From positions 1 to 61,310 of the forward strand of contig PBFM01000006.1 in assembly GCA_002718655.1 (NCBI GenBank): a stretch of 61,310 nt of DNA, given 5' to 3'. The translations under genes were made by a program, and so were the position numbers. Source of the DNA: Fidelibacterota bacterium. GTDB lineage: Bacteria; Fidelibacterota; Marinisomatia; Marinisomatales; UBA1611. Below, piece after piece: positions 9,028 to 23,533 of the stretch. The first letter of the stretch is position 1. Every line of letters begins with the position of its first letter. Under the pieces are notes generated by a model that was not told the DNA's origin, ran no database searches, and saw only the letters and a program-made list of their open reading frames with translations.

Positions 9028-9836
9028 AAGTTAGGTCCCTTTAATTCATTATTTTTTAGGAAACTAGTTACATAATGGAAAGTATCATTAATATCATCAG
9101 ATATGTGAAAAAGATTCAAGTCTTCTGACGATATGGTTCCGATTTCTGCTAAATAATTCCAGTTTACCACATTTTCCCAGAATTCTTTTCCATATAATAC
9201 TATCGGCAGTTTCTTTTTTATTTTTCCCGTTTGTATTAGTGTTAGTAACTCCATTATTTCATCTAGTGTTCCAAAGCCACCTGGCCATACGACCAAAGCT
9301 TTTGCAAGATATAGAAACCAAAACTTACGCATAAAAAAGTAATGAAATTTCATATTGAGGTCATCAGATATCCATTTATTCCCCGATGATTCAAAAGGAA
9401 GAGAGATTGTCAGGCCAATATTAACTCCACCTGCCTCAGAAGCACCTCGATTTGATGCCTCCATAATTCCAGGGCCACCTCCAGAACAAATAATATATCT
9501 ATTTTTACTTCCTTTAAGATTTTTACTCCATTTGGTAAGTTTTTTTGAAAGCAATCTAGCATCTTCATAATAACGACTCATTTTTAAATCCATTTTGAGA
9601 CGATTTATTTTTTTTTCATCCATATTTTCTGAGACTTTAGACAAGGCTTCTTTGGCCTTACTTGGAGAAACAGTTCTAGCGGATCCAAAAAAAACAATTG
9701 TATCGGAAATGTTGTTTCTTTTTAATCTTTGAAGTGGTCCATAGTATTCTGCTAAAATTCTTATTGATCTACCTGACGGACTACCTAAAAAATCTGTGTC
9801 GTAATAAAATCGATTTTTTTTATCAGCTTTTGACAT
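9024..9836 (-). CDS. LOG family / TIGR00730-type Rossmann-fold nucleotide-binding protein (nucleoside 5'-monophosphate phosphoribohydrolase-like)
   Basis: Motifs ICSGGGPGIMEA and VVWPGGFGTLDEIME. 4-nt overlap with the downstream amidohydrolase gene. Confidence 0.8.
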   Translation of the reverse strand: MSKADKKNRFYYDTDFLGSPSGRSIRILAEYYGPLQRLKRNNISDTIVFFGSARTVSPSKAKEALSKVSENMDEKKINRLKMDLKMSRYYEDARLLSKKLTKWSKNLKGSKNRYIICSGGGPGIMEASNRGASEAGGVNIGLTISLPFESSGNKWISDDLNMKFHYFFMRKFWFLYLAKALVVWPGGFGTLDEIMELLTLIQTGKIKKKLPIVLYGKEFWENVVNWNYLAEIGTISSEDLNLFHISDDINDTFHYVTSFLKNNELKGPNF

Positions 9837-9958
9837 GGTGTTTAATCCTTTGTTGCTTTAAAGCATAAAGTAATGATTTTTCTAATTTAAAAATAGTTAT
9901 GTTTGAAATTTGATATATTATATTGATTGAACAAATTTAATCTAGGTATTTTCTAGTA

Positions 9959-10303
9959 ATGTATTATCGCATATTTATCATATTACTGCTTTTTTCTTGC
10001 GCATCTAAATCAATACCAAAAATTTCTGTGGATCTTCCACCTACCAAAAACATGTCTCTTCAACCAATGGCTGAAACAGTTTATACATTAGGATATTTGT
10101 CAGAGTATGACATATGGGAATTCCTAAAAGGTAATCCTTCACAGAAAGATGTATTGGAAACATTTGGTTTTCCTGATTCAGTTTGGTTAGATGATCAAGA
10201 ATCAACTAAATATCTATATTATTACATTTCAAAAATTAGGGATTATAATACCATCGAGATTAGTGCTAAAACTGATAGTGTATCAGGTTTTGAATGGGAT
10301 TAA
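9959..10303 (+). CDS. Small hypothetical lipoprotein
   Basis: 114 aa. N-terminal MYYRIFIILLLFSCASKS has a lipobox-like LFSC. No recognisable domain. Confidence 0.45.
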   Translation: MYYRIFIILLLFSCASKSIPKISVDLPPTKNMSLQPMAETVYTLGYLSEYDIWEFLKGNPSQKDVLETFGFPDSVWLDDQESTKYLYYYISKIRDYNTIEISAKTDSVSGFEWD

Positions 10304-10318
10304 AGGGAAAATAAAGAA

Positions 10319-11398
10319 ATGAAACCATTAAACTATAGTGAATATTTGGGATTAGAGAATATCTTAAATAATCAAAAACTTAAAAGCGAAGAAAGGGGTT
10401 CTGCCGCACATGATGAGATGCTATTTATTATCATTCATCAAATTTACGAATTGTGGTTCAAACAAATTATCTATGAGCTAAATTCAATATTGAGAATTTT
10501 CAGTAAGGATTCTGTAATTGAATCCGATGTTAGTCTCGCTGTAATCAGATTGGATAGAATCATTGAAATCCAGAAAATTCTTATTGACCAAATAAGAGTT
10601 CTTGAAACCATGACAGCAATGGATTTCTTAGAATTCAGGGATGACCTTTTTCCTTCTTCAGGATTTCAAAGTTCTCAATTCAGAGAAATAGAAAATAAAT
10701 TGGGTCTCAAAATTGGCAATAGAATTAATTATGGAGGTAAAGACTACAAGAAAGTGATTTTAGATAAAGAGCAAAAAAAGGTTAAACGTTCAGAAGAAGA
10801 AAATTCTTTATTTGATCTACTTGAAAAATGGTTAGAAAGAACACCATTTTTATCTTTTGAAGGATTTGACTTTTGGGAACAATATAGTATTGCGGTTAAA
10901 AGAATCCTCAATAATGAAGAGCAAATTATAAGAAACAACCCTAATTATTCATTGGATGAGGTCAGTTATCATCTTAAAGAACATGAAAGAGCAGTATCTT
11001 CATTTGAAGCAATGATTAATCCTGAAAAGCACCTTGAATTAATCAAGAAAAATAAAAAACGTTTATCACACACTGCTACTCAAGCAGCGCTGCTAATTTT
11101 CCTTTATAGAGATGAGCCCATCCTTCATTCTCCATTCAACTTTTTATCTCGACTTATCGACGTTGATGAGTTACTCACTACTTGGAGGCAGAGGCATGCT
11201 CTAATGGTAAGAAGAATGATTGGAGCAAAGATAGGAACTGGTGGTTCATCAGGTCATGCATATCTAAAGGCTACAGCTGAGAATCACAAAATATTTTCTG
11301 AATTAGCAGATCTTTCAACTTTTTTCATTCAACGCTCTGCGCTTCCAAAATTACCTGAACATATAAAACGAAGCTTAGGATATCATTTTAAATTATGA
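10319..11398 (+). CDS. kynA: Tryptophan 2,3-dioxygenase
   Basis: 359 aa. Has YSEYLGLENILNNQ...HDEMLFIIIHQIYELWFKQ and C-terminal GTGGSSGHAYL, both typical of TDO. First gene of the kynurenine operon. Confidence 0.85.
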   Translation: MKPLNYSEYLGLENILNNQKLKSEERGSAAHDEMLFIIIHQIYELWFKQIIYELNSILRIFSKDSVIESDVSLAVIRLDRIIEIQKILIDQIRVLETMTAMDFLEFRDDLFPSSGFQSSQFREIENKLGLKIGNRINYGGKDYKKVILDKEQKKVKRSEEENSLFDLLEKWLERTPFLSFEGFDFWEQYSIAVKRILNNEEQIIRNNPNYSLDEVSYHLKEHERAVSSFEAMINPEKHLELIKKNKKRLSHTATQAALLIFLYRDEPILHSPFNFLSRLIDVDELLTTWRQRHALMVRRMIGAKIGTGGSSGHAYLKATAENHKIFSELADLSTFFIQRSALPKLPEHIKRSLGYHFKL

Positions 11399-12183
11399 AA
11401 TTTTCATTTGAGAATAAACGCGCCATAGTTTGCGGTGGTACTGATGGCATTGGAAAAGAAACTGCTCATATTTTAGCCAATCTTGGATGCGAAATTACTT
11501 TAGCAGCGCGTGATGTTAAAAAGTTGAATAACACGATATCAAATTTGGCAGATAATCACGGCCAATCTCATAATGTTATATGTGCAGATTTTAATAATGC
11601 AGAACAACTTGAGGAGAAAGTTCATTCACACTTGGAAAGTATTGGGAAAACTGTTGACATATTAATAAACAATTCAGGTGGGCCTCATGGGGGCCCAATT
11701 ATTCAGGCTAATGAAAATGAATTTCGCGTTGCTTTTGAACGACTACTTATAGCAAACCAAATTATGGCGAAAGCTGTTTTTCCTGGAATGAAAAAAAAAG
11801 GTTCTGGACGGATAATTAATATAATATCAACCTCAGTAAGACAGGTAATACCTGGCTTAGGTGTCTCCAATACCATTAGAGGAAGCGTGGCTCAATGGGG
11901 TAAAACGCTTGCACTAGAATTGGGTGAGTATGGAATCTGCGTTAATAATGTGTTGCCAGGATATACTGCAACTAGTAGACTAAAAGAATTAGCAAAAAAT
12001 AAGTCAAAATTATTAGGGATTAGCATTGATGAAGTTTATGCTCAATGGGAAAATAATACCTCACTAAGGCGCCTAGGAACTCCACAGGAGATTGCAAATA
12101 TAATAGTATTTTTGGCTTCTGATGCCTCTAGCTATGTTACTGGTCATAATTTTTCTGTTGATGGTGGCCGTTTTGGTGCCTGA
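11395..12183 (+). CDS. Atypical short-chain dehydrogenase/reductase family protein (catalytic Tyr/Lys positions substituted)
   Basis: Rossmann motif CGGTDGIGKE and NNSGG. By alignment from memory with E. coli FabG, the YxxxK position reads S-N-T-I-R (GVSNTIRGSVAQWGK). Start overlaps the kynA stop by 4 nt. Confidence 0.7.
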   Translation: MKFSFENKRAIVCGGTDGIGKETAHILANLGCEITLAARDVKKLNNTISNLADNHGQSHNVICADFNNAEQLEEKVHSHLESIGKTVDILINNSGGPHGGPIIQANENEFRVAFERLLIANQIMAKAVFPGMKKKGSGRIINIISTSVRQVIPGLGVSNTIRGSVAQWGKTLALELGEYGICVNNVLPGYTATSRLKELAKNKSKLLGISIDEVYAQWENNTSLRRLGTPQEIANIIVFLASDASSYVTGHNFSVDGGRFGA

Positions 12184-12272
12184 AATAAATTCTTTTAAAT
12201 AATGAATGATAATGGAGGGATTAAAGTCAATTTACACCAAAATTATGTTTGTTTTTTGCACCTAATAATCTT

Positions 12273-13718
12273 ATGAAGTTGATTCAAAACTATGTTAACG
12301 GGGAATATGTGAGTGGAACTTCAGCACATCGAATCGATTTATTTGATCCTGCAATAGGTCGTCCGTATGGCCAATTGATTGATTCAAGCATAAAGGATGT
12401 TAATGATGCAATAAACTCCTCCAAGATTGCGTTTCCACTATGGTCTTCAATGAAATTGAATAATAGAGCTAAATATCTAAATGCAATTGCAGATGAAATT
12501 GAATCTCGGGCAAATGAGTTTTCAGAAATCGAGTCAATGGATACCGGAAAGCCTATCTCCCTAGCAAATTCTTTAGATATACCAAGAGCAATTTCAAACT
12601 TTAGATTTTTTGCTGAGTATGCAAAAAAATTTGAATATATTTCAAATCTTAACGATGAAATTTCAAAAAATGAAATATCAAGAAATCCTCTTGGCGTAGT
12701 GTGTTGCATATCGCCTTGGAACCTGCCTCTTTATCTTTTTACATGGAAGATAGCCCCAGCATTGATTACGGGGAACACTGTTATAGCGAAACCATCTGAA
12801 ATCACTCCATATACTGCATACTTGCTTGGAGAAGTATGTACCAAGGTTGGATTACCCCCAGGAGTTTTGAATATCATACAAGGAAGAGGTTCAACTACTG
12901 GAGATTTCATTGTAAAAAATGAATTTATTAAAGCAATTTCATTTACCGGTGGAAGTGAAACTGGAAAGACCATTTATAAAAATGCATCCAACACATTTAA
13001 AAAATTATCCTTAGAGATGGGAGGTAAAAACCCTGCAATAATATTCCAAGACTGCGATTATAATGACACACTAGATTCAATTACTAGGTCCTCATTTCTT
13101 AATCAGGGTCAGATATGTTTATGCAGTTCCCGTCTTTTAATAGAAGAATCAATATATGATCGATTCAAAAAGGATTTCTGTGATAGAGTATCAAATTTAA
13201 AAATTGGAGACCCAATGGAGCTTGATACTCAATTTGGAGCAATATCATCTGAAGAACATTTTACCAAAATAAATAATTATATTAAATTGGCAAAAGATGA
13301 AGGGGCAAATATTCTGACTGGAGGGATAGTTGAAAGATTAAATGGAAGATGCGCTGATGGATGGTTCATAAGGCCAACTGTATTAGAAGGGTTAAGTAAT
13401 TCTTCAAGATTGAATCAGGAAGAGATTTTTGGCCCAGTTGTTACATTACAATCTTTTAATTCAGAATCAAACGCAATTAAGATGGCCAACGATACTGTCT
13501 ACGGTTTATCTGCAACGATATGGACCAAGGATAATAAAAAGGGGAAAAAAATATCAAGAAAAATTGATGCTGGAGTAATTTGGGTCAATTGTTGGTTGGT
13601 TAGAAATCTAAACACACCATTTGGTGGAATGAAACAATCTGGATTAGGACGTGAGGGTGGTAATGATGCAATCCAATTTTTTACTGAACAAAAGAATATC
13701 TGTTTATCAACAAGGTGA
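12273..13718 (+). CDS. nbaE: Aldehyde dehydrogenase, probably 2-aminomuconic semialdehyde dehydrogenase
   Basis: ALDH motifs SLEMGGKNPAIIF and catalytic-Cys region NQGQICLCSSR. Operon context with ACMSD and a RidA-type deaminase. I prefer ATG 12273 (MKLIQNYVNGEYV) to the track's TTG at 12249. Confidence 0.75.
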   Translation: MKLIQNYVNGEYVSGTSAHRIDLFDPAIGRPYGQLIDSSIKDVNDAINSSKIAFPLWSSMKLNNRAKYLNAIADEIESRANEFSEIESMDTGKPISLANSLDIPRAISNFRFFAEYAKKFEYISNLNDEISKNEISRNPLGVVCCISPWNLPLYLFTWKIAPALITGNTVIAKPSEITPYTAYLLGEVCTKVGLPPGVLNIIQGRGSTTGDFIVKNEFIKAISFTGGSETGKTIYKNASNTFKKLSLEMGGKNPAIIFQDCDYNDTLDSITRSSFLNQGQICLCSSRLLIEESIYDRFKKDFCDRVSNLKIGDPMELDTQFGAISSEEHFTKINNYIKLAKDEGANILTGGIVERLNGRCADGWFIRPTVLEGLSNSSRLNQEEIFGPVVTLQSFNSESNAIKMANDTVYGLSATIWTKDNKKGKKISRKIDAGVIWVNCWLVRNLNTPFGGMKQSGLGREGGNDAIQFFTEQKNICLSTR

Positions 13719-14074
13719 GTATAAAATACCAAAAACACATTTTTATATGCATAAATGAACGCTCTGTTCAAAATCCAAGAGGTGATTGTTTTAGGTGTGG
13801 CGGAATGGATGTAAGAATGAGGTTTGTCCAGCTAATTAATCAAAACGGATTAAAAGGTAAGGTACGTGCAAATAAAAGTGGATGCTTGGATGCCTGTGAA
13901 TTAGGTCCCGTAATTGTTATATATCCAGATAATATTTGGTATGCTAAGGTAAGAGTTGAGGATGTTGATGAGATTTTTAAGACATCTATTTTAAATAATG
14001 GAATTGTTGATAGACTGCATGTAAAAAAAGATACATGGTATTCACAAAAAAAAATGAGAGAATCAAAAAAATGA
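13715..14074 (+). CDS. Thioredoxin-like [2Fe-2S] ferredoxin
   Basis: 119 aa, GTG start inside a GTGA overlap. Cys pattern C-x12-C...C-x3-C (FICINER...GDCFRC...SGCLDACELGP) and PVIVIYPDNIWY, typical of thioredoxin-like ferredoxins. Confidence 0.7.
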   Translation: MSIKYQKHIFICINERSVQNPRGDCFRCGGMDVRMRFVQLINQNGLKGKVRANKSGCLDACELGPVIVIYPDNIWYAKVRVEDVDEIFKTSILNNGIVDRLHVKKDTWYSQKKMRESKK

Positions 14075-14484
14075 GTGACGTGATAAATGCAACTAATGCA
14101 CCCATTCCTGTTGGGAAATATCCTCATGCTAGGAAGGTTGGCAATTTACTTTTTTTATCTGGTGTTGGACCAAGAAAGCCTGGAACAAACACAATCCCAG
14201 GAGTTATGATGGACGGACAAGGTAACGTAATTGGACACGATATCGAGGCACAGTGTCACTCGGTTTTTGAAAATGTGAAAATTATTTTAGATGAATCAGG
14301 TAGTAGTTGGGATAATCTGGTGGATATAACTGTGTTTTTGACAAATATGAAAAGAGACTTTGATATTTTTAACAAGATCTATGGTGATTATTTTATCAAT
14401 AATCAACCTTGTAGGACAACTTTAGAGGTAAGATCTCTTCCTACACCAATCGCCATCGAATTGAAATGTATAGCAACAGTTTGA
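14071..14484 (+). CDS. nbaF: RidA/YjgF family deaminase, probably 2-aminomuconate deaminase
   Basis: MSDVINATNAPIPVGKYPHARKVGNLLFLSGVGPR... is RidA-like. ATG 14071 forms an ATGA overlap with the ferredoxin stop; the track's start at 14035 is an upstream extension. Confidence 0.7.
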   Translation: MSDVINATNAPIPVGKYPHARKVGNLLFLSGVGPRKPGTNTIPGVMMDGQGNVIGHDIEAQCHSVFENVKIILDESGSSWDNLVDITVFLTNMKRDFDIFNKIYGDYFINNQPCRTTLEVRSLPTPIAIELKCIATV

Positions 14485-14486
14485 GA

Positions 14487-15005
14487 ATGATGAGATTATC
14501 ACCGCCTATAGATTTTATGAAGTGGATAGATAATAATCGCCATTTACTTAAGCCTCCAGTTGGAAACAAAATCATCTATGAGGATGGGGATTTTATGATT
14601 ATGGTAATAGGAGGGCCTAATTCAAGAAAAGATTATCATGTGGATCCGGTTGAAGAATTCTTTTATCAATTGGAAGGAGATATGGTTTTGAAAATAATTG
14701 AAGATGGTAAGCGGGTTGACATACCAATCAAACAAGGTGAAATATTTTTACTTCCAAAGAAAGTACCTCATTCTCCTCAAAGAAATGATAATACAGTAGG
14801 ACTAGTTATCGAATATAAAAGAGATGAGGGAGAGTTAGATTATTTTCAATGGTACTGCGATAATTGTGATGCTTTACTTCATGAGATTAGTCTTGATCTC
14901 GAGGATATTGTTTCTCAACTGCCTCCACTCTTTAAAAAATATTGGGACGATTTAGCTTTGAGGACATGTGATCAATGTGGTGCAATCCAAGATCCACCAG
15001 AATAA
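14487..15005 (+). CDS. nbaC: 3-hydroxyanthranilate 3,4-dioxygenase
   Basis: Cupin with DYHVDPVEEFFYQLEGDM and VPHSPQR. C-terminal rubredoxin-like CDNCD...CDQCG site. ATG 14487 lies 2 nt after the RidA stop; the track's start at 14466 overlaps RidA. Confidence 0.85.
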   Translation: MMRLSPPIDFMKWIDNNRHLLKPPVGNKIIYEDGDFMIMVIGGPNSRKDYHVDPVEEFFYQLEGDMVLKIIEDGKRVDIPIKQGEIFLLPKKVPHSPQRNDNTVGLVIEYKRDEGELDYFQWYCDNCDALLHEISLDLEDIVSQLPPLFKKYWDDLALRTCDQCGAIQDPPE

Positions 15006-15012
15006 TATAATT

Positions 15013-16020
15013 TTGAAAATCGACATACACACACACATTTTACCAAAAACATGGCCAGATCTTGAGAAGAAATTTGGCTACGGAGGATGGATCAGTTTAG
15101 AGCACCATACCAAAGACTATGCCAAAATGATGAAAAATAATGAATGTTTCAGGATAATTGAATGTAATTGTTGGGATCCAGTAACTCGGATTAATGAATG
15201 TGATGAAAACAGTGTTGATTTACAGGTTCTTTCAACAGTCCCAGCAATGTTTAATTATTGGGCGAAACCAGATCATACATTATTTGTCTCAAAAATAATT
15301 AATGACCATATTGCAAAGTTAGTTGATGACTATCCAAAAAGGTTCCTTGGTTTGGGGACAATACCGATGCAGGATGGTAAACTAGCAATAAAAGAGTTAG
15401 AAAGATGTATCAAAGACTTAGGTATCTCTGGTGTTCAAATAGGCTCAAACATAAATGGTGTGAACCTTAGTGATGAATCTATTTTTCAAGTATTTGAAGC
15501 AGCCGAAGATCTTGGTGCGTCAATATTCATACACCCTTGGGATATAATGGGGAGAAATGAAACAAAAAAGTACTGGCTACCATGGCTAGTTGGTATGCCT
15601 GCTGAAACTAGTAGAGCAATTTGTTCAATGATTTTTGGTGGAGTATTTGAAAGATTACCTAATCTAAGGGTCGCTTTTGCGCATGGTGGCGGAGCATTTC
15701 CTGCGACAATTGGAAGAATACAACATGGATTTGATGTAAGACCTGATCTTTGTGCAATTGATAATGATACCCCTCCCATCGATTATTTAGGAAAATTCTG
15801 GGTAGACTCATTAGTTCACGATATTGAAATCCTTGATTATATAATCAAAAAAATAGGTGATGAAAAAATTGTTTTAGGCTCGGACTATCCATTTCCACTT
15901 GGTGAAGATAACCCTGGAATTATGATAAAAAACTCTAATCTTCCAGAAATAACAAAAGAAAAGATTTTTCATAAGAATGCATTGGACTGGTTAGGAATTG
16001 AACACAATTCGTCAGAATGA
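15013..16020 (+). CDS. nbaD: 2-amino-3-carboxymuconate-6-semialdehyde decarboxylase (ACMSD)
   Basis: KIDIHTHILPKTWPDL, FAHGGGAFP and GSDYPFPLGE motifs. An in-frame TTG at 15013 gives the canonical MKIDIHTH N-terminus and avoids the 38-nt overlap implied by ATG 14968. Confidence 0.85.
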   Translation: MKIDIHTHILPKTWPDLEKKFGYGGWISLEHHTKDYAKMMKNNECFRIIECNCWDPVTRINECDENSVDLQVLSTVPAMFNYWAKPDHTLFVSKIINDHIAKLVDDYPKRFLGLGTIPMQDGKLAIKELERCIKDLGISGVQIGSNINGVNLSDESIFQVFEAAEDLGASIFIHPWDIMGRNETKKYWLPWLVGMPAETSRAICSMIFGGVFERLPNLRVAFAHGGGAFPATIGRIQHGFDVRPDLCAIDNDTPPIDYLGKFWVDSLVHDIEILDYIIKKIGDEKIVLGSDYPFPLGEDNPGIMIKNSNLPEITKEKIFHKNALDWLGIEHNSSE

Positions 16021-17264
16021 TACATAATAAATCAAGAACTTATGCAGAGTTGATGGATCAAAGAGATAGTCTAAATGGATACCGTAATCTATTTAATTAT
16101 CCAAAAAATAATACTGGTGACCCCTTGATATATTTCTGTGGCAATTCTCTAGGACTGCAACCAAAAGCAGCATTTTCACAAATAAAAAAAGAATTCTCTG
16201 TTTGGTCAAATAAAGGCGTTTTAGGGCAGGATAGCAGATGGATTCCTTACCACGAGAGAATGACCAAGACTTCTGCAAAATTAGTTGGTGCAAAAGAAAC
16301 TGAAGTTGTTGTAATGAATGCATTAACTGTGAATATTCATTTATTACTAATATCATTTTATCAGCCTAGTAAAAAAAGACATAAAGTAATAATGGAGAAA
16401 GATGCTTTTCCATCCGATCAATATGCGATAAAAAGCCAGGTTGAATTACATGGCTATGATCCCAAAAATTCAATTATTGAAATCTCACCAAGGGATAAAG
16501 AGAAAATAATCAGAGAAAAAGATATTATTAGTTCAATTATTGAAAATAGAGATGAACTAGCACTGATATATATTGGGGGTGTTAATTATTATACTGGACA
16601 AGTATTTAATATGGAAAAAATATCTAAGGTAGCTAAGGAAAATAATATTACAATCGGTTTCAACCTTGCTCATGCAGCCGGGAATATTCCACTTTCTTTA
16701 CATGACTGGGAGGTTGATTTTTCATCATGGTGTACTTATAAGTATCTATGCGGTGGTCCAGGTTCACCTGCAGGAACTTTCATACATGAAAATCACCATG
16801 ATTGGAAAGGACCTAGATTAACAGGTTGGTGGGGACATAACAAAAAATCAAGATTTGAAATGCCTTCATCATTCGATCCAATACCTACATCTGAAGCATG
16901 GCAGATAAGTAATGCTCCAATTATGGGCATGGCTCCATTAATTGTTGCAATGGATATGTTTGACAAGGTTGGAATGGATAATATCCGTGAAAAAAGTATT
17001 CAATTAACCTCCTATTTGCAGTATTTAATTGAATGTTTTCTACCCTCCGTTAAAATCATTACACCAGATTCTAGAGGCTGTCAGTTATCAATTATTGTTC
17101 CAAACGGGAGAAAAATTTTCAATTTTCTCAATCAAAATGATGTGGTGTGTGATTGGAGAAATCCTGATGTGATTCGCGTTGCACCACATCCCCTATTCAA
17201 TACCTATGTTGAGGTTTATGAATTTATACAAATAATGAAAAAAGCAATTGAACAAGAAACATAA
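16017..17264 (+). CDS. kynU: Kynureninase
   Basis: 415 aa. FCGNSLGLQPK, PLP-Lys region WCTYKYLCGGPGS, RLTGWWGH. ATGA overlap with the ACMSD stop. Confidence 0.9.
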   Translation: MIHNKSRTYAELMDQRDSLNGYRNLFNYPKNNTGDPLIYFCGNSLGLQPKAAFSQIKKEFSVWSNKGVLGQDSRWIPYHERMTKTSAKLVGAKETEVVVMNALTVNIHLLLISFYQPSKKRHKVIMEKDAFPSDQYAIKSQVELHGYDPKNSIIEISPRDKEKIIREKDIISSIIENRDELALIYIGGVNYYTGQVFNMEKISKVAKENNITIGFNLAHAAGNIPLSLHDWEVDFSSWCTYKYLCGGPGSPAGTFIHENHHDWKGPRLTGWWGHNKKSRFEMPSSFDPIPTSEAWQISNAPIMGMAPLIVAMDMFDKVGMDNIREKSIQLTSYLQYLIECFLPSVKIITPDSRGCQLSIIVPNGRKIFNFLNQNDVVCDWRNPDVIRVAPHPLFNTYVEVYEFIQIMKKAIEQET

Positions 17265-18579
17265 AATTACAATCATAGGTTCTGGTTTAGCTGGACCATT
17301 GATGGCATCATATTTATCACAGAGAGGTTATGAAGTAAACATTTATGAGAAACGTCAAGATATGCGTATTCATAAACAATCTGCTGGGCGTTCAATAAAT
17401 CTCGCACTTTCGAAAAGAGGTATAGATTCCTTAAAGGATATTGGCTTGTATGATAAGGTTCGGTCAAAGATGTTACCAATGGCTGGGCGTATGATACATG
17501 ATATTGATGGTAAACAACACATGCAAAGATATGGTCAAAAAAATAATGAGGTTATTTACTCCATATCTAGATCATTTCTGAATAAAGTTCTCATTGACCA
17601 TGCTGAAAGCAAACCTAATGTTCAAATATTTTTCAATCAAAAATTGATTGAAGTTGAACTAAATAAATCTAAACTAATTTTTAATGAGGAAAGAAAAATT
17701 GTACCTTTTGAAATATTATTTGGGAGTGATGGATCTGCATCACCAGTAAGAAATTCAATGGAGGAAATTTCTTCAATAAATTTTAGAAAAATTCCACTTG
17801 ATCACGGATACAAAGAAATAAACATGCCACCAGATCTGGCAGGGAATTATCGTATGAATCCCAATGCATTGCATATATGGCCAAGAGGAAATTTCATGTT
17901 GATTGCACTACCAAACACTGACCATAGTTTTACATGTACTTTATTTTTTCCAATGCTAGGTGAATTAAGTTTTTCTTCAATAGATTCAGAAAATAAAATT
18001 ATAGAATTTTTCAAAATGCAATTTCCTGACATTATCGAAATGTTACCTAATCTTGTAGAAGATTATAAAAACAATCCTACAGGCAAACTTGCAACAGTAT
18101 ATTGTGATAAATGGAATTACAAAGGTAAGGCTCTAATATTTGGTGATGCAGCCCACGCAATAGTACCATTTTTTGGACAAGGCATGAATGCTTCTTTTCA
18201 AGATTGTAAAGTAATTGATCAAATGATTGAAAAGTATGAAGGGGACTGGAATGAGGTTTTCTCAAACTTTACCAAGAACCACAAACCTAATGGGCATGCG
18301 ATTGCTAATATGGCACTTGAGAATTATATAGAAATGAGAGGCTTGGTTAATGATGAAGGCTATATCAAAAAAAGGGAACTTGAGCTTAAACTTGAACTAG
18401 AATTTCCAAATAGATTTTTACCTAGATATTCTATGGTCTCATTTCATTCCTTACCTTATTCGGAGGTCTACAAAAGGGGAGAGATACAATCGAAATTAAT
18501 GGATGAATTCTTAGCGGGAAAAATCAATCAACAAGAATTGAAAGGCAAAATATTAAAAAAATTGGAAACCATTCTTTGA
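17248..18579 (+). CDS. kmo: Kynurenine 3-monooxygenase
   Basis: FAD fold KITIIGSGLAGPLMASYLSQRGYEVNIYEKR and FGDAAHAIVPFFGQGMN. TTG start overlapping the kynU end. Confidence 0.85.
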   Translation: MNKKHKITIIGSGLAGPLMASYLSQRGYEVNIYEKRQDMRIHKQSAGRSINLALSKRGIDSLKDIGLYDKVRSKMLPMAGRMIHDIDGKQHMQRYGQKNNEVIYSISRSFLNKVLIDHAESKPNVQIFFNQKLIEVELNKSKLIFNEERKIVPFEILFGSDGSASPVRNSMEEISSINFRKIPLDHGYKEINMPPDLAGNYRMNPNALHIWPRGNFMLIALPNTDHSFTCTLFFPMLGELSFSSIDSENKIIEFFKMQFPDIIEMLPNLVEDYKNNPTGKLATVYCDKWNYKGKALIFGDAAHAIVPFFGQGMNASFQDCKVIDQMIEKYEGDWNEVFSNFTKNHKPNGHAIANMALENYIEMRGLVNDEGYIKKRELELKLELEFPNRFLPRYSMVSFHSLPYSEVYKRGEIQSKLMDEFLAGKINQQELKGKILKKLETIL

Positions 18580-19757
18580 AAAAGTTTAAAATCATTTTTT
18601 CAACATTTATTTTATTACTAGCTATGTCATGTGAAAAAGATTCAATGAGTATTCATGATAAAGCTTTTGTTGTTGATACACATAATGATGTACTACTTCG
18701 TTCACTGACAGGGCGTGACATTCTTAAAAATCTACCTGAGAGCCATTCAGACTTACCAAAATTTAGGCAGGGAGGCATAGATCTTCAGGTGTTCTCAATT
18801 TGGGTGTCTCCGACAGAATTCAAAGATGCATATTATGCTCGCGCAAACTATATTATATCTCAACTAGAATTTCTTTGTTCAAGAGTTCCAGATAAATGGT
18901 CTATCCCGCATAATTACCAAGATATTATTTACAATGAACAACGAGGTGTACTTTCATGCATGATTGGTGTAGAGGGAGGCCATGTAATAGAAAATGATTT
19001 AAATAAAATTGATGAATTGCATAAAAGAGGCATGAGATATTTGGGTGTGACCTGGAATAATTCTAATGAATGGGCAACATCAGCAAAAGATGAGACTCAA
19101 GCTAAACAATCCTTAGATTTCATTGGACTAACTGAATTTGGGGAGAAAGTGATTCAAAGGTGTAATAAGCTTGGGGTAATCGTAGATATTTCGCACGCTG
19201 GTGAGCAAACTGTCAGTGATATTTTAAGGGTAACTGAAAAGCCAATCATAGCTTCGCATTCTTCAGTGTATGATTTATGCCCTCATTATAGAAATCTAAA
19301 AGATGATCAATTATTAGCCATTAGGGAAAATGGTGGTGTTGTATTTGTAAACTTTTACCCTGGATATATTGATTCCACATTTGAAAATAAAGCAAGAAAT
19401 ATACGTCAATTAAATAGTTCATCTTTAGACTCCATATCAAAACTATATAAGCAAGATTCTGATTCTCATTGGTACAAAACTAATGAAATATTAGCACCTC
19501 ACCTTCAAAAAGTTGCTCCTGGGATTGATGATGTTGTTAAACATATTGATTACATAGTCGATCTAATTGGCATAGATCATGTTGGCATTGGTGGTGATTG
19601 GGATGGAGTGGAAATCTTGCCTTCAGGGATAGAGCACATTGGAAAAATGCCGCTTTTAACAAAAAAACTTCTTAATAGGGGTTACTCGATAAGTGATTTG
19701 AAAAAAATTCTAGGAGGGAATTTTAAAAGAGTTTTTAAAGAGGTCAATCATCTGTGA
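18576..19757 (+). CDS. Membrane dipeptidase (peptidase M19, renal dipeptidase family), lipoprotein
   Basis: Signal/lipobox LLLAMSC, then VVDTHNDVL, VDISHAG and GIGGDWDG motifs. TTG start in a TTGA overlap with the kmo stop. Confidence 0.8.
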   Translation: MKKFKIIFSTFILLLAMSCEKDSMSIHDKAFVVDTHNDVLLRSLTGRDILKNLPESHSDLPKFRQGGIDLQVFSIWVSPTEFKDAYYARANYIISQLEFLCSRVPDKWSIPHNYQDIIYNEQRGVLSCMIGVEGGHVIENDLNKIDELHKRGMRYLGVTWNNSNEWATSAKDETQAKQSLDFIGLTEFGEKVIQRCNKLGVIVDISHAGEQTVSDILRVTEKPIIASHSSVYDLCPHYRNLKDDQLLAIRENGGVVFVNFYPGYIDSTFENKARNIRQLNSSSLDSISKLYKQDSDSHWYKTNEILAPHLQKVAPGIDDVVKHIDYIVDLIGIDHVGIGGDWDGVEILPSGIEHIGKMPLLTKKLLNRGYSISDLKKILGGNFKRVFKEVNHL

Positions 19758-19781
19758 TTATTCATAAATTAAACTATCATA

Positions 19782-20459
19782 ATGATAAAACAATTTAAAC
19801 TGGCCCCATCAATATTATCAGCAGACTTTTCTGATTTAAGCTTAGCACTTAAAATTTGTGAAGATGGTGGAGCGCACTGGATACATGTTGATGTGATGGA
19901 TAATCAGTTTGTTCCTAACCTTACCATTGGTCCTTGCGTTGTTGATTCTATAAGGCCAAAAACAAAAAAGTTCATCGATGTTCATATGATGGTTGTAAGG
20001 CCTGAAGAATTGGTAGAGCCTTTCGCAAGGGCCGGAGCAGATAATATCACATTTCACATAGAAGCGACCAATAACCCTAGCAAAATTATCAATCTTATTA
20101 GGTCATGCGGTTGCAAGGCTGGAATCTCCCTCAAACCACAAACACCATTAGACTCTATTTACCCTTATTTAGATGAAATTGATATCGTTTTGATAATGAG
20201 CGTTGAACCTGGGTTTGGTGGTCAAGGTTTTTTACCTGAGACAAGGGATAGAATATCCAAGCTTAAGAATTTTCTTTCAGATAATTGTCTGGAGAGAGTG
20301 ATGATTGAGGTGGATGGTGGAATCAAACTTCACAATGCTAAAGAGGTTATCAATGCTGGTGCTGATGTTCTTGTCGCTGGTTCAGAGGTTTTCGACTCAC
20401 AAGACCCCGAGAAAAGAATTAAAGATTTTTATCAAGTATTTAATAATGAATTAAGATGA
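19782..20459 (+). CDS. rpe: Ribulose-phosphate 3-epimerase
   Basis: LAPSILSADF, HVDVMDNQFVPNLT, MSVEPGFGGQ and VDGGI motifs. Confidence 0.9.
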   Translation: MIKQFKLAPSILSADFSDLSLALKICEDGGAHWIHVDVMDNQFVPNLTIGPCVVDSIRPKTKKFIDVHMMVVRPEELVEPFARAGADNITFHIEATNNPSKIINLIRSCGCKAGISLKPQTPLDSIYPYLDEIDIVLIMSVEPGFGGQGFLPETRDRISKLKNFLSDNCLERVMIEVDGGIKLHNAKEVINAGADVLVAGSEVFDSQDPEKRIKDFYQVFNNELR

Positions 20460-20530
20460 AATTGAATATTAATTATTGTAATTATTACTAAATTAAATTT
20501 AGTTATTTTCTAAAAATCAATAACCATTTT

Positions 20531-22561
20531 ATGAACACATTTCAAAATATATCTAATTTTAATTCCTGGACAAATATTGAAAAAGACCGATATGCAGTTT
20601 CGGTAATTAAAGGTTTGGTAATGGATGCAACTAGACAGGCAAATAGTGGACACCCAGGTGGTCCAATGTCTTGTGCTGATTTTGCCTATGTACTTTTTTC
20701 TAATCATTTACAATTTAACCCAAGCAATGCTCAGTGGTTTAATCGAGATAGGTTTATTCTTTCGGGAGGACATATGTCAATGCTACAGTATTCATTGTTA
20801 TTGATGATTGGATGGTTGGATATTAAGGATATAAGAAATTTTCGTCAATTTGGTAGCAGAACACCAGGACATCCTGAGGTAGAGATTCCAGGTGTTGAGT
20901 GTACAACGGGTCCGCTCGGTCAAGGATTTGCTATGGGAGTGGGTATGGCCCATGCTGAGGCATACCTTAGGAATTTATTTTTGCAAAAAAAAAATAACCA
21001 CTCAGATAAAATCATTAATCACTTTACCTATGTGCTTGCAAGCGATGGTGACCTTCAGGAACCAGTAACACTGGGATCTGCATCATTGGCAGGTCATCTC
21101 GGTCTTTCAAAATTAATTGTTTTTTATGATGCTAACTCTGTCCAAATATCAGGAAAAACTTCTAGATCTGATTCCACTGATTATGTTAAAGTATTTGATG
21201 GATTTAATTGGCATGTACAAGTTATTGATGGTCATGATCATGATAGTTTAAATGATGCCATTAGAAAAGCAAAGGAGTCAGATAAACCAAGCCTAATAGT
21301 TGGTAATACTATAATGGCAAAAGGTACTGCTACAATGGAAGGAGACCATAATACACACGGTGCTCCATTACCTGAAGAAGAAATAATTGCAACAAAAATG
21401 AAACTTGGCCTTCCACCAGAGGAATTTTATTTTCCAAGAGAAGTTCAGAAACATTTTCAAAAACATTTTAATATTATGAAAGAGAAAGCTAATGAATGGG
21501 ACCTGAATAAAAAACATGCTTGTTCTTCAAATGAAATGAAGGCATTGATTTCTCTTTGTATAAATGATGAACTTAGAGATACGGAATATCCAGAATTCAA
21601 ATTTGGAGAGTCAATTGCAACCAGAAAAGCTTTTGGAGCAACTTTAGATAAATTTTCAGAAGCAATACCAAATCTGATAGGTGGTTCAGCTGATTTAGAG
21701 CCTTCAAATTATACAGGAAATTTTGCAAAGAAATATCATGATTTTACAGCAGGTCACCAATCAGGAAGAAATATACCTTTTGGTGTTCGTGAATTTCCAA
21801 TGGCAGCAATGTTAAATGGTATGGCACTACACGGAGGCATCATACCTTTTGGAGGTACTTTTTTAGTCTTTTCTGATTATGAGAGGCCAGCATTGCGATT
21901 AGGTGCAATTCAAAATGCTAGGGTTATACATGAATTTACGCATGATTCATTTTATGTTGGAGAGGATGGTCCTACACATCAGCCAATTGAGCATGCTATG
22001 TCATTAAGATCAATACCAAATCTTAATGTTTTTCGTCCTGCAGATGCAAAAGAAACTGCAATATGTTTTAAAATAGCAATAGAGGAAAAGCACACTCCGA
22101 GTTCTCTTCTATTGACAAGACAGGGTGTGCCAGTTCTTGAACAGAATTATGATGAAATTGAAAAAGGTGTCCGTAAAGGTGCGTATATTGTAAAAGATTG
22201 TGATGAGCCTCCAGAACTTGTTTTTATCGCAACTGGGTCTGAGGTATCTCTGGCGATAGCTTCATCAAATCTGTTTTCTGAAAAAAATATCCGTATAGTG
22301 AGTATGCCCTGCATGGAGATATTTGATAAACAGACTCTTGATTATAAAAGAAAAATTATCCCGCATCGCCGATGTCTAAAAGTCACAATAGAAGCCGGAG
22401 TTACGCAAGGGTGGGAAAAATTTTCAGGGGTGAATGGGTTGAATATTGGAATTGATCATTATGGCGCTTCAGCTCCAGGTAAAATATTAGCAAAAGAATT
22501 TGGTTTCACGCCTAAGAAAATAGAAAAAAAGATAAGAAATCATTTGAAAAACTTATTATGA
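20531..22561 (+). CDS. tkt: Transketolase
   Basis: 676 aa. ANSGHPGGPMS, GPLGQG, ASDGDLQEP, GEDGPTHQP. Confidence 0.9.
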   Translation: MNTFQNISNFNSWTNIEKDRYAVSVIKGLVMDATRQANSGHPGGPMSCADFAYVLFSNHLQFNPSNAQWFNRDRFILSGGHMSMLQYSLLLMIGWLDIKDIRNFRQFGSRTPGHPEVEIPGVECTTGPLGQGFAMGVGMAHAEAYLRNLFLQKKNNHSDKIINHFTYVLASDGDLQEPVTLGSASLAGHLGLSKLIVFYDANSVQISGKTSRSDSTDYVKVFDGFNWHVQVIDGHDHDSLNDAIRKAKESDKPSLIVGNTIMAKGTATMEGDHNTHGAPLPEEEIIATKMKLGLPPEEFYFPREVQKHFQKHFNIMKEKANEWDLNKKHACSSNEMKALISLCINDELRDTEYPEFKFGESIATRKAFGATLDKFSEAIPNLIGGSADLEPSNYTGNFAKKYHDFTAGHQSGRNIPFGVREFPMAAMLNGMALHGGIIPFGGTFLVFSDYERPALRLGAIQNARVIHEFTHDSFYVGEDGPTHQPIEHAMSLRSIPNLNVFRPADAKETAICFKIAIEEKHTPSSLLLTRQGVPVLEQNYDEIEKGVRKGAYIVKDCDEPPELVFIATGSEVSLAIASSNLFSEKNIRIVSMPCMEIFDKQTLDYKRKIIPHRRCLKVTIEAGVTQGWEKFSGVNGLNIGIDHYGASAPGKILAKEFGFTPKKIEKKIRNHLKNLL

Positions 22562-22995
22562 AAATCCATATGGCTACAGATCATGCTGGACTTGAATTGA
22601 AAGAAAATATCAAAATTCATCTATTAAATGATGGATATGATATTGAAGATCACGGTGCCTACGAGTATGATGCACTTGATGATTACCCTGACTTTATTTT
22701 CCCTTGTGCTATCGCTGTTGCATCTGATCAAGAAAGCCGTGGAATTATTTTAGGAGGTTCTGGTCAGGGTGAGGCTATGGCAGCAAATAGGATAAAAGGC
22801 GTAAGAGCTGCGGTTTATTACGATGGCCCTGTTGAGATCATTAAACTTTCAAGAGAACATAACAACGCAAACATATTATCCATTGGTGCACGTTTCATGA
22901 GTAAAAATAAAATTTATGATATTATAGAGTTTTGGTTAAAAGAGCCATTTGAAGGTGGTAGGCACCAAAAGCGCATAGAAAAATTAGATAATTAA
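22558..22995 (+). CDS. rpiB: Ribose-5-phosphate isomerase B
   Basis: 145 aa. MKIHMATDHAGLELKE and GGSGQGEAMAANR motifs. 4-nt overlap with tkt. Confidence 0.85.
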   Translation: MKIHMATDHAGLELKENIKIHLLNDGYDIEDHGAYEYDALDDYPDFIFPCAIAVASDQESRGIILGGSGQGEAMAANRIKGVRAAVYYDGPVEIIKLSREHNNANILSIGARFMSKNKIYDIIEFWLKEPFEGGRHQKRIEKLDN

Positions 22996-23002
22996 ATATG
23001 AT

Positions 23003-23533
23003 TTAGCAGATGATTCCATTAATACTATGGAACTTTAATTGTTTTCTCTCCACCTTACCTTTTTCAATATCATATATATCACAAGCATCATATGGCTTAG
23101 CATAAACATGTAAGCTTGAGGCAAATTCATCGGAAAGATTCTCGACTGAATGAATGTCTGCTGGGCCATCAAGAAAACCAGGCTCACAATTAAATTCTTG
23201 TATTTTGTTCAATCTTAAAGGATCTGCAGAAACTTGTTCATAATTACAAATTTTTAGTTTTCCCGTTTGCACCCTTGCCCAACATTTTTCACCTTCATGT
23301 CCATGTATCGGTGCTGATGCCATAGGGGGCCAGCAAATAATCATTATCTCAAAATCCGTTTCTTTATGAATAAGGTTTCTTGTATAAGTACTATCTTCAG
23401 TAAGGTGATATTTTTTTAGTATGCTCTCATTTAGTTTTAAGCTTGAAAGGTATGATGTAACATTTGGTACCGGAAAATCATATTCAGCAAAATCTTGTAA
23501 TTTTTGGATAATCTGATTTATCATATGCGACAT
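23003..23533 (-). CDS. Cupin-fold thiol dioxygenase, cysteine dioxygenase type I-like
   Basis: 176 aa. CWPPMASAPIHGHEGEKCWARVQTGKL and a later ADIHSVEN give a 3-His cupin pattern like CDO / 3-mercaptopropionate dioxygenase. Overlaps the 3' end of mobA by 13 nt. Confidence 0.6.
   Translation of the reverse strand: MSHMINQIIQKLQDFAEYDFPVPNVTSYLSSLKLNESILKKYHLTEDSTYTRNLIHKETDFEIMIICWPPMASAPIHGHEGEKCWARVQTGKLKICNYEQVSADPLRLNKIQEFNCEPGFLDGPADIHSVENLSDEFASSLHVYAKPYDACDIYDIEKGKVERKQLKFHSINGIIC

Follow-up and report, generated by a model that had tools for sequence, protein, structure and literature searches.

The window, the whole stretch of 61,310 nucleotides that was analyzed, belongs to an uncultured marine Marinimicrobia (SAR406) MAG (G000) with a completeness of 80%. 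At positions 10319-19757, it carries a chain of plus-strand genes that, judged from sequence, is almost certainly a real, animal-like kynurenine (tryptophan-breakdown) operon. The gene identities and coordinates given in an earlier note on this DNA hold against profile and PDB-sequence matches, and the genes are joined by overlaps of 4 nt or separated by gaps of at most ~90 nt. An assembly artefact can be dismissed as the source of this arrangement, since one contig of run X1 covers positions 9327-20239 and the KMO/M19 junction is bridged by a contig from a different study (X6).

The first gene encodes a long, eukaryote-type tryptophan 2,3-dioxygenase (TDO; 10319..11398; PF03301, 348 bits) that matches the Drosophila and human enzymes over its full length at ~300 bits, whereas matches to bacterial TDO reach 95-99 bits and cover the N-terminus only. 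It is followed by an atypical SDR (11395..12183) and by 2-aminomuconate-6-semialdehyde dehydrogenase (AMSDH; 12273..13718). The ORF of the latter (12249-13718) is open from a TTG at 12249, although comparison of orthologue N-termini favors the ATG at 12273 as the likely start; AMSDH is its best PDB match class (4u3w, 7bzv, 4i1w; ~430 bits). A thioredoxin-like [2Fe-2S] ferredoxin (13715..14074) is recognizable by its Cys pattern and by a match to NF041612 of 79 bits, which is below the cut-off. The RidA-family gene (14071..14484; PF01042) is open from 14035, and its likely true start at 14071 forms an ATGA overlap with the ferredoxin stop. Next are 3-hydroxyanthranilate 3,4-dioxygenase (3-HAO; 14466..15005; NF009763, 265 bits with a cut-off of 220; TIGR03037, 244 bits with a cut-off of 146) and ACMS decarboxylase (ACMSD; 15013..16020). 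The ACMSD ORF is open from a GTG at 14968, its alignments begin at ORF residue 16, and 15013 is the likely true start; it scores 451 bits against the human enzyme (2wm1/4ofc) versus 225 bits against Pseudomonas fluorescens ACMSD. Kynureninase (16017..17264; TIGR01814, 423 bits, cut-off 246) and kynurenine 3-monooxygenase (KMO; 17248..18579) complete the set; the latter matches Pseudomonas fluorescens KMO and other solved KMOs at 312-334 bits and further KMO entries at ~239 bits, with the next family at only ~73 bits. The earlier description of a eukaryote-like operon leading from kynurenine to 2-aminomuconate is thereby supported.

Homology and gene context indicate that TDO yields N-formylkynurenine and that KMO, kynureninase, HAO, ACMSD and AMSDH take the carbon to 2-aminomuconate, with release of alanine, formate and CO2. 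The RidA-family protein is the probable 2-aminomuconate deaminase, which would convert 2-aminomuconate to 2-oxohex-3-enedioate. The clusters of relatives likewise have it between AMSDH/ferredoxin and HAO, and it matches the 2-aminomuconate deaminase 6izh at 77 bits, the same level as generic RidA proteins. The ferredoxin is present in L003-L005, L010 and L014-L017 and absent from L007, L009, L012 and every Bacteroidota locus inspected; this putative accessory gene is restricted to Marinimicrobia versions of the cluster.

The cassette is set into a chromosomal frame. Upstream of TDO, a small lipoprotein of 114 aa (9959..10303; no Pfam match, signal peptide and Cys visible) stays in place in relatives whether or not they have kynurenine genes, and is a conserved frame gene rather than a pathway enzyme. 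Downstream, the rpe-tkt-rpiB trio (19782..22995; Pfam matches) comes after KMO or M19 in every family member inspected and delimits the kynurenine cassette on this side. The M19 dipeptidase (18576..19757; PF01244, 335 bits) overlaps KMO by 4 nt and is a co-transcribed neighbor, and its N-terminus, KKFKIIFSTFILLLAMSC, bears out the lipoprotein signal claimed for it earlier. It is absent from the same-genus operons of G004, G005 and G008, is inserted between KMO and rpe in some genomes only, and adjoins rpe in G006 and G020, which have no KMO. Because it is missing from same-genus operons and kept where the kynurenine genes are gone, M19 is not a pathway enzyme but very likely an exported lipoprotein of the frame, unrelated to the pathway. 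The pathway unit therefore comprises nine genes rather than the ten first proposed, and the puzzle that had been seen in its only hydrolase dissolves, leaving no step for M19. That M19 is itself the missing formamidase, through an internal start without the signal peptide or by acting on exported N-formylkynurenine, is scarcely credible. The 4-nt overlap at the KMO stop implies that the two genes are co-translated, the M19 family consists of binuclear-metal amidohydrolases, and internal ATG codons lie at 18624 and 18645; however, no M19 gene turned up in 11 relatives that have KMO (among them same-genus G005, 93% complete), and 8 relatives without KMO do carry one. Nine of ten orthologues inspected keep both signal peptide and lipobox Cys (the Cys is missing in the G010 copy). 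The formamidase step is, moreover, already covered by a KynB homologue.

Neither kynB nor genes for 4-oxalocrotonate decarboxylase (4-OD), hydratase or aldolase occur within the operon or the window. The earlier claim that formamidase is lacking is true of the window only: the genome-wide search for kynB, which had been set beforehand as a refuting test, found a KynB-family gene on contig C42 (G000:C42:14916-15668, minus strand) that co-varies with KMO. It is the sole PF04199 gene of the genome by profile search. Its only PDB sequence matches are KynB 4cz1 and 4co9, with the metal ligands aligned, and the best fold matches of its model (pLDDT 93) are the kynurenine formamidases 4co9, 4cog and 4cob (TM 0.82-0.83), compared with TM 0.58-0.61 for isatin hydrolases. 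Residues H71, H76, E78, H82, H203 and E215 do not vary among 26 homologues. JGI names homologues arylformamidase or kynurenine formamidase, and no signal peptide was found in the C42 protein. The protein is a divergent family member: its score with TIGR03035, the curated arylformamidase model, is 32 bits (cut-off 223), and its metal motif is one residue longer through an insertion and has Glu in place of the Asp of KynB. This type of KynB is shared by 19 of 20 KMO-positive relatives, and 17 of 21 KMO-negative ones lack it; the four remaining KMO-negative relatives, one of them 97% complete, still have the same cyclase-family gene, which counts against the assignment. At least six relatives (G010, G012, G014, G024, G032, G039) and three Flavobacteriales MAGs have the gene embedded in their kynurenine cluster. 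Sequence, model and distribution thus indicate that the C42 gene is very probably the formamidase, and this unlinked arylformamidase would remove the formyl group from N-formylkynurenine.

The absence of the Burkholderia-type lower pathway (4-OD, hydratase and aldolase), also noted earlier, is supported in this genome and in 39 of 40 relatives. TIGR03218 and PF07836 (4-OD/hydratase and DmpG aldolase) are absent from those 39, including genomes that are 93-99% complete, and the tautomerase family was not found. The one exception, G024, has a whole meta-cleavage cassette spliced into its kynurenine cluster, and its 4-OD, hydratase, aldolase and acetaldehyde-dehydrogenase proteins gave no tblastn match in G000. 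TIGR03218 is likewise missing from ten Flavobacteriales genomes that carry this SDR cluster, and the five of these that were tested lack DmpG. In our view, the canonical lower pathway is quite likely genuinely missing, and the lineage would do without the 4-oxalocrotonate route. The completeness of 80% and the ability of the lineage to host the G024 cassette speak for a pathway hidden in the unassembled 20% of the MAG, but this is highly unlikely, as the genes are also missing from same-genus G005 (93%) and G008 (96%) and from G013 and G016 (both 95%) and G032 (97%), and the G024 cassette sits within the kynurenine cluster, where the contig of this genome is continuous. Canonical genes consequently leave the fate of the C6 diacid unassigned.

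The SDR is the one operon enzyme without an assigned step. It carries S158-x3-R162 instead of Y-x3-K, and this S-x3-R motif is invariant in 22 orthologues. By sequence and fold, its top match is AerF (6jh7/6jha/6jhb; TM 0.91), with YwfH/BacG also listed; the catalytic positions of AerF are S/N, whereas those of the operon SDR are S/R. PMC13256417, together with Qiu 2020 as cited in PMC10143770, describes AerF as an NADPH-dependent alkenal C=C reductase, and BacG reduces H2HPP to H4HPP (PMC9147277). Since its nearest characterized relatives reduce the C=C of unsaturated 2-oxo acids, we propose that the SDR would reduce the conjugated C=C of the deaminated product with NAD(P)H. It is the best candidate for making 2-oxoadipate, an assignment held tentatively at slightly below even odds. 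2-Oxoadipate would then pass via a housekeeping 2-oxoacid dehydrogenase and glutaryl-CoA dehydrogenase to acetyl-CoA. A glutaryl-CoA dehydrogenase (GCDH) gene lies on G000:C7, but the enzyme is universal across the group and so is permissive, not diagnostic. The best explanation as a whole would combine a nine-gene cytoplasmic cassette (TDO, Tyr-less SDR, AMSDH, [2Fe-2S] ferredoxin, RidA-type deaminase, 3-HAO, ACMSD, kynureninase, KMO), an unlinked KynB and SDR-dependent formation of 2-oxoadipate, to which we assign a probability of about 0.6.

The distribution of the SDR bears on this proposal in both directions. Kynurenine genes lie beside it in 49 of 80 homologous loci, around which no other conserved neighbor was found; the other 31 have none within 10 kb. 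Orthologues persist without HAO and AMSDH in G006 and G020 (P5CR-SDR-M19), G019 (TDO-SDR-ferredoxin) and G031 (KYNU-nadC-SDR), so the role of the SDR is not exclusively downstream of 2-aminomuconate, and the same S-x3-R is found in solved relatives without assigned function (TM1169 1o5i; Burkholderia 5va8). These observations would speak for a pathway that goes no further than 2-aminomuconate or 2-oxohex-3-enedioate, or that leaks into picolinate/quinolinate, so that the cell gains alanine, formate, ammonia and NADH only, while the SDR detoxifies reactive quinone-imine/enone by-products or serves outside tryptophan. We regard such an ending as unlikely, given the relatedness to C=C reductases and because a streamlined genome would hardly retain ACMSD, AMSDH and a deaminase to make a dead-end product. 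In a co-occurrence survey of 151 Flavobacteriales genomes, moreover, the SDR tracks AMSDH (70/72 AMSDH-positive genomes) more tightly than HAO (72/88 HAO-positive genomes): 70 genomes have both SDR and AMSDH, 8 the SDR only and 2 AMSDH only, and fourteen HAO-positive genomes lack both. Against the proposed role, G024 retains the SDR alongside its full meta-cleavage cassette.

Rather improbable is a reduction of 2-aminomuconate itself, in the manner of metazoan ASPDH/AMR, to 2-aminohex-3-enedioate or 2-aminoadipate, with RidA merely scavenging imine/enamine. In Metazoa, an NAD(P)H-dependent 2-aminomuconate reductase does perform this step, and the unspecific RidA score would fit; in eukaryotes, however, deaminase and reductase are reported to be mutually exclusive (both from preprint 10.64898/2026.06.05.730449), whereas deaminase and SDR are conserved side by side here. 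The SDR is also unrelated to ASPDH, and the substrates of AerF and BacG are 2-oxo acids, not amino acids. Still more doubtful is a redox-maintenance pair of SDR and ferredoxin that keeps the TDO heme or the HAO non-heme iron ferrous and catalyzes no catabolic step. TDO and SDR are widely found adjacent, with an overlap of 4 nt, G019 (99% complete) keeps exactly TDO-SDR-ferredoxin with the rest of the cluster lost, and in G031 the ferredoxin adjoins KYNU-nadC-SDR. Against this, all Bacteroidota and several Marinimicrobia clusters with the SDR have no ferredoxin, SDRs lack any cofactor able to reduce ferredoxin, and in Flavobacteriaceae the SDR lies at a distance from TDO, with AMSDH and HAO on either side.

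None of the six genomes of its own genus yielded a nadC, so the pathway in this genus looks catabolic only, without a role in NAD synthesis; nadC has been lost from the cluster. In G007, G016, G023, G032 and G039, nadC lies inside the kynurenine cluster, and in G011 it is at a contig edge just upstream of it.

The window is the entire contig C6 of a 2.1-Mb MAG (G000) that comprises 60 contigs and is estimated to be 80% complete, and the closest public loci to it belong to Candidatus Marinimicrobia/Neomarinimicrobiota MAGs and SAGs. At 10319-19757, ten plus-strand ORFs lie in series with 4-nt overlaps or short gaps, in the order long TDO, SDR (11395-12183), 2-aminomuconate-semialdehyde dehydrogenase (AMSDH), thioredoxin-like [2Fe-2S] ferredoxin, RidA-family protein, 3-HAO, ACMSD, kynureninase, KMO and M19 dipeptidase (18576-19757). 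The gene assignments proposed for this operon in the earlier note were all confirmed by family and structure-database searches. The operon layout is no assembly artefact: a single metagenome contig spans 9327-20239, and a second contig, assembled in an unrelated study, crosses the KMO/M19 junction. A promoter and terminator scan of 9700-23200 returned counts equal to the shuffled expectation and was uninformative on operon boundaries.

Every enzyme of the upper pathway (TDO, KMO, kynureninase and 3-HAO) is recognisable by a curated model or a solved homologue. TDO matches PF03301 with 348 bits and scores ~300 bits over its full length against the solved eukaryotic enzymes of Drosophila and human, whereas its match to Xanthomonas/Ralstonia-type TDO is below 100 bits and confined to the N-terminus. 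KMO scores 334 bits against a solved KMO, kynureninase lies above the TIGR01814 cut-off, and 3-HAO lies above those of NF009763 and TIGR03037. Homologues of ACMSD, AMSDH and the RidA-type deaminase are all three adjacent in the operon. ACMSD scores 451 bits against the human enzyme versus 225 against that of Pseudomonas, AMSDH reaches ~430 bits against AMSDH structures in a PDB search, and the RidA protein scores 77 bits against the solved 2-aminomuconate deaminase 6izh, a value that generic RidA proteins equal. With TDO and ACMSD scoring higher against animal than against bacterial enzymes, the label "eukaryote-like" given to the operon was a fair one. The ferredoxin (13715-14074) overlaps its operon neighbours at GTGA and ATGA and occurs only in Marinimicrobia versions of the cluster; it could conceivably serve to re-reduce the iron of HAO or TDO.

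The animal-like upper kynurenine pathway of Flavobacteriales has been published previously (Lima et al. 2009, Mol Biol Evol 26:399; Ternes and Schoenknecht 2014, PMC4217691). Eukaryote-like kynurenine clusters are thus already known in Flavobacteriales and other bacteria, the formamidase family is already named by annotation pipelines, and the operon is an ordinary, well conserved one in a new host lineage. A literature search combining Marinimicrobia and kynurenine found nothing relevant. The Flavobacteriales clusters share TDO, KMO, kynureninase and HAO with the G000 operon, including the animal-like TDO and ACMSD, and cultured Flavobacteriaceae (Winogradskyella, Tenacibaculum, Mariniflexile and Aureibaculum) have the SDR-AMSDH-RidA-HAO-ACMSD core in common with it. 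The G000 operon differs from them in its Marinimicrobia host, its gene order, its additional thioredoxin-like ferredoxin, the loss of nadC in this genus and an unlinked formamidase gene.

As in Flavobacteriales, nadC lies within the cluster in relatives of G000, being located between SDR and AMSDH in G007, G016, G023, G032 and G039, and at a contig edge directly upstream of AMSDH in G011. All six genomes of this genus (G000-G005), one of them 93% complete, yielded no nadC, and the 80% complete G000 yielded no nadA. The kynurenine pathway of this genus looks purely catabolic and uncoupled from NAD synthesis; ACMSD and the later steps would therefore be essential to avoid dead-end quinolinate, which the loss of nadC leaves without an outlet. 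With no such outlet for their kynurenine pathway, members of the genus may be auxotrophic for niacin.

The earlier note had listed kynurenine formamidase as missing, and this gap is now closed by a gene outside the window. G000 has exactly one gene of the PF04199 cyclase family, on the minus strand of contig C42 (14916-15668), which encodes a protein of 251 aa without a signal peptide. The product scores 45 bits against PF04199 (cut-off 23) and falls below the curated arylformamidase model TIGR03035 (32 bits, cut-off 223), for which reason we file it as a divergent cyclase/arylformamidase subfamily and not as canonical KynB. Its sole matches among solved structures in a sequence search are two Bacillus anthracis kynurenine formamidase entries, with whose KynB its His/His/acid/His and later His/Glu metal ligands align. 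Three different KynB structures are among the top Foldseek matches of its AlphaFold model (pLDDT 93), which fits best to the kynurenine formamidases of Bacillus, Burkholderia and Pseudomonas (TM 0.82-0.83, versus 0.58-0.61 for isatin hydrolases). KynB and isatin hydrolases carry the motif HxGTHxDxPxH plus distal His and Glu ligands. In the C42 protein all ligand positions align and are invariant in 26 homologues, but the motif is a variant, H-C-x-G-T-H-x-E-x3-H, in which one residue is inserted, Glu replaces Asp and the Pro is lacking. Compared with KynB of B. anthracis (4co9/4cz1), Burkholderia cenocepacia (4cog) and Pseudomonas aeruginosa (4cob), it likewise has the PF04199 cyclase fold, but is ~20% identical and ~40 residues longer. 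Some of its homologues are named arylformamidase or kynurenine formamidase by JGI, and "cyclase family protein" by NCBI.

Genomic context is decisive for regarding the C42 gene as the putative formamidase gene. Among 41 related genomes, 19 have both KMO and the cyclase gene and 17 have neither; four, three of them less than 87% complete, have the cyclase gene without KMO, and the single genome with KMO and without the cyclase gene carries KMO as a contig-end fragment. Like KynB, the homologues in relatives are genomically linked to kynurenine genes, and the orthologue lies inside the kynurenine cluster in G010, G012, G014, G024, G032 and G039 as well as in three Flavobacteriales MAGs; the order in G010 is CYC-TDO-SDR-AMSDH-Fd-RidA-HAO-ACMSD-KYNU-KMO. 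From the in-cluster orthologues and the co-occurrence with KMO, we assign the formamidase step to this predicted KynB-family enzyme, whose gene is merely unlinked in this genus. On contig C17 of G032 (extracted locus L007:18751-19629), folD, for methylene-THF dehydrogenase/cyclohydrolase, adjoins the in-cluster formamidase gene; the adjacency may reflect what becomes of the released formate, or it may be coincidence.

The M19 dipeptidase had appeared puzzling as the only hydrolase of the operon. It matches PF01244 with 335 bits over positions 2-319 of 319, and the metal-ligand stretches DTHND, GVEGGH, DISHAG and ASHSS are present. The lipoprotein signal previously ascribed to it was borne out, with signal peptide and Cys conserved in nine of ten orthologues inspected. 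Only G000, G011, G013, G016 and G022 have M19 between KMO and rpe; KMO runs straight into rpe, without M19, in G004 and G005 of the same genus and also in G008. KMO is lacking in eight relatives that have M19, and an M19 orthologue in eleven that have KMO. In the KMO-less G006 and G020, the same slot holds a small lipoprotein, P5C reductase, SDR, M19, one unassigned gene, rpe, tkt and rpiB. The conserved chromosomal frame consists of M19, the small upstream lipoprotein, the divergent LOG-amidohydrolase operon and rpe-tkt-rpiB, and the kynurenine cassette is set inside this frame and is eroding there. M19 is no constant member of the cluster and is kept without KMO, which resolves the puzzle; on its distribution and conserved export signal it was rejected as the formamidase.

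Bacteria are known to end the pathway by the lower route of Burkholderia and Pseudomonas, and the tryptophan and 2-aminophenol lower pathway of the Burkholderia cenocepacia/Pseudomonas nba-amn type was reportedly described by Colabroy and Begley in 2005. The HAO, ACMSD, AMSDH and RidA-type 2-aminomuconate deaminase steps are homologous between that route and the G000 operon, in which the Tyr-less SDR stands in the cluster instead of the genes for 4-oxalocrotonate decarboxylase (4-OD), hydratase, aldolase and acetaldehyde dehydrogenase. In order to locate 4-OD, 2-oxopent-4-enoate hydratase, HOA aldolase and acylating acetaldehyde dehydrogenase, G000 was searched with TIGR03218, PF07836 and PF01361 and by tblastn with proteins of the relative G024. 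None of these gave a match in G000 (80% complete). Of 40 relatives, among them several that are 93-99% complete, 39 likewise gave none with TIGR03218 and PF07836, which bears out the reported absence of the lower-pathway genes. Ten Flavobacteriales genomes that have this SDR-containing core also gave no match to the 4-OD family (TIGR03218), and the five of them searched for DmpG (Winogradskyella jejuensis, a Tenacibaculum, Mariniflexile gromovii, Aureibaculum flavum and a Kordia genome) gave none to that either. With the canonical lower pathway missing both from almost all of the lineage and from cultured Flavobacteriaceae that have the same core, the gap after 2-aminomuconate deamination is real.

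The one exception is G024, on whose contig C14 (~19-36 kb; loci L013:14281-19804 and L107:1-12388) a whole meta-cleavage cassette lies within the kynurenine cluster, between RidA and SDR, and replaces AMSDH-Fd. It encodes a catechol 2,3-dioxygenase, an HMSD-type ALDH, a dmpH-like 4-OD, HOA aldolase, acylating acetaldehyde dehydrogenase and hydratase, together with two PEP-synthase-like proteins and an IclR regulator; the 7% contamination of G024 bears on the trust to be placed in the cassette join. PF01557 was dropped as a probe for 4-OD and hydratase, and TIGR03218 and tblastn were used instead, because it missed the real dmpH/dmpE/HpaH-type genes of G024 that TIGR03218 found; a PF01557 negative thus does not equal absence of either enzyme. 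Its only match in G000 is the fumarylacetoacetase of an HPPD operon. In relatives it detects two proteins, one FAHD-like, of ~225 aa and distributed independently of KMO, the other a hydrolase of ~280 aa within a fucose/rhamnose-type sugar-acid cluster. Such non-phosphorylative clusters, which account for the high-scoring matches in relatives, occur on contig C5 of G032 (L100:3793-8411) and contig C126 of G005 (L099) and encode L-fucose dehydrogenase, lactonase, an enolase-family dehydratase, an SDR and a didehydro-deoxy-rhamnonate hydrolase-like FAH protein. The HPPD operon itself, on contig C38 of G000 (L002:342-3579), is a tyrosine-catabolism operon; besides HPPD and the fumarylacetoacetase-family protein it encodes a homogentisate dioxygenase-like protein that is very divergent, scoring 60 bits with TIGR01015 (cut-off 511).

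Exactly one conserved operon enzyme is without an assigned step at the point of this gap, namely the SDR. It has Ser158 and Arg162 at the positions of the usual catalytic Tyr and Lys, invariant in 22 orthologues from several phyla, and the cofactor motifs TDGIG and NNSGG. Its top match is AerF both in sequence (123 bits, 31% identity) and in fold (TM 0.91, rmsd 2.0), and YwfH ranks 13th among the fold matches (TM 0.89-0.92). AerF functions in aeruginosin biosynthesis as an NADPH-dependent alkenal C=C reductase (PMC13256417; Qiu 2020, cited in PMC10143770), and BacG/YwfH reduces dihydro- to tetrahydro-hydroxyphenylpyruvate (PMC9147277). Both AerF (Microcystis aeruginosa, 6jh7/6jha/6jhb) and BacG/YwfH (Bacillus subtilis, 3u49/3u4c) are SDR-fold NADPH-dependent C=C reductases acting on prephenate-derived unsaturated 2-oxo acids. 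This chemistry at the C=C of an unsaturated 2-oxo acid is that needed to convert 2-oxohex-3-enedioate to 2-oxoadipate. We propose, at a probability of roughly 0.45, that the SDR is a bacterial 2-oxohex-3-enedioate reductase yielding 2-oxoadipate. It resembles AerF, which has Ser and Asn at the same two catalytic positions, in having Ser for the catalytic Tyr and, likewise, a conjugated 2-oxo acid as proposed substrate; it differs in having Arg, not Asn, at the Lys position, and from both AerF and BacG in its catabolic context as opposed to secondary metabolism and in an acyclic C6 dicarboxylate as proposed substrate.

The distribution of the SDR bears on this proposal from both sides. Kynurenine genes occur no farther than 10 kb from the orthologue (~50% identity) at 49 of 80 loci, in Bacteroidota, Phycisphaerales, Gemmatimonadota and Ignavibacteria, and clustering of the unassigned ORFs within 7 kb of the 80 SDR loci found no family in more than 13 loci, the top recurring families being large surface-type proteins. 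Across 151 Flavobacteriales genomes, which are mutually related so that the counts are descriptive only, SDR and AMSDH occur together in 70, SDR without AMSDH in 8, AMSDH without SDR in 2, and HAO without either in 14; its distribution therefore places the SDR with the catabolic branch and not with NAD synthesis. Against the proposed role, orthologues survive without HAO and AMSDH in G006, G020, G019 and G031, and G024 has the SDR beside its meta-cleavage cassette, so the link to the lower pathway is not absolute. These cases may be decaying or re-purposed remnants. Glutaryl-CoA dehydrogenase, encoded on contig C7 of G000 and named by PDB search but not by NCBIfam, was rejected as a discriminating marker; it is present in ten of ten relatives tested, KMO-positive and KMO-negative, and is permissive only.

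In animals the corresponding step has been assigned to ASPDH, while fungi have a RidA-type deaminase only and their later steps were left open (preprint 10.64898/2026.06.05.730449). Like the metazoan 2-aminomuconate reductase (ASPDH/AMR), the SDR is a candidate for an NAD(P)H-dependent step after AMSDH, towards 2-oxoadipate and glutaryl-CoA; unlike the SDR, ASPDH/AMR has an unrelated fold and acts on the enamine, before deamination. In eukaryotes ASPDH/AMR and the RidA-type deaminase are mutually exclusive (10.64898/2026.06.05.730449), whereas here a deaminase and a reductase candidate coexist. If the SDR is the 2-oxohex-3-enedioate reductase, the kynurenine pathway would have a third kind of ending, next to the 4-OD route of Burkholderia and Pseudomonas and the animal ASPDH/AMR, and one in use in Marinimicrobia, Bacteroidota, Phycisphaerales and others. 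Such a reductase would also close the last unassigned enzymatic step from tryptophan to glutaryl-CoA in abundant marine heterotrophs, and might point to the equivalent step in fungi, likewise with a deaminase only. The question is timely, since the animal enzyme was reported only in 2026, and with one small soluble candidate and cultivable relatives the passage of tryptophan carbon to 2-oxoadipate, a long-standing problem, is directly testable. Of the two gaps noted originally, that of the formamidase is closed, and that of the lower pathway is confirmed and now has a testable candidate. Marinimicrobia (SAR406) are abundant ocean heterotrophs, for which the operon represents a complete tryptophan-use route for alanine, ammonia and, probably, acetyl-CoA.

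Several relatives retain partial or rearranged cassettes. The chromosomal slot keeps just TDO-SDR-ferredoxin in G019 (contig C13; L112:6633-9280), P5C reductase-SDR-M19 in G006 and G020 (contig C16 of G020; L109:7370-10518; SDR 46% identity), and SDR-GMC oxidoreductase-M19-OsmC in G014 (contig C28; L117:1176-5560), while in G031 (contig C17; L113:6676-10282) the ferredoxin adjoins KYNU-nadC-SDR. The SDR is the most persistently kept gene across these partial cassettes. In G010, an SDR fragment (51% identity over ~100 aa) lies at the ancestral slot on contig C48 (L111:5748-6071) and an intact kynurenine cluster on another contig, C152, which suggests that the cassette was relocated or re-acquired.
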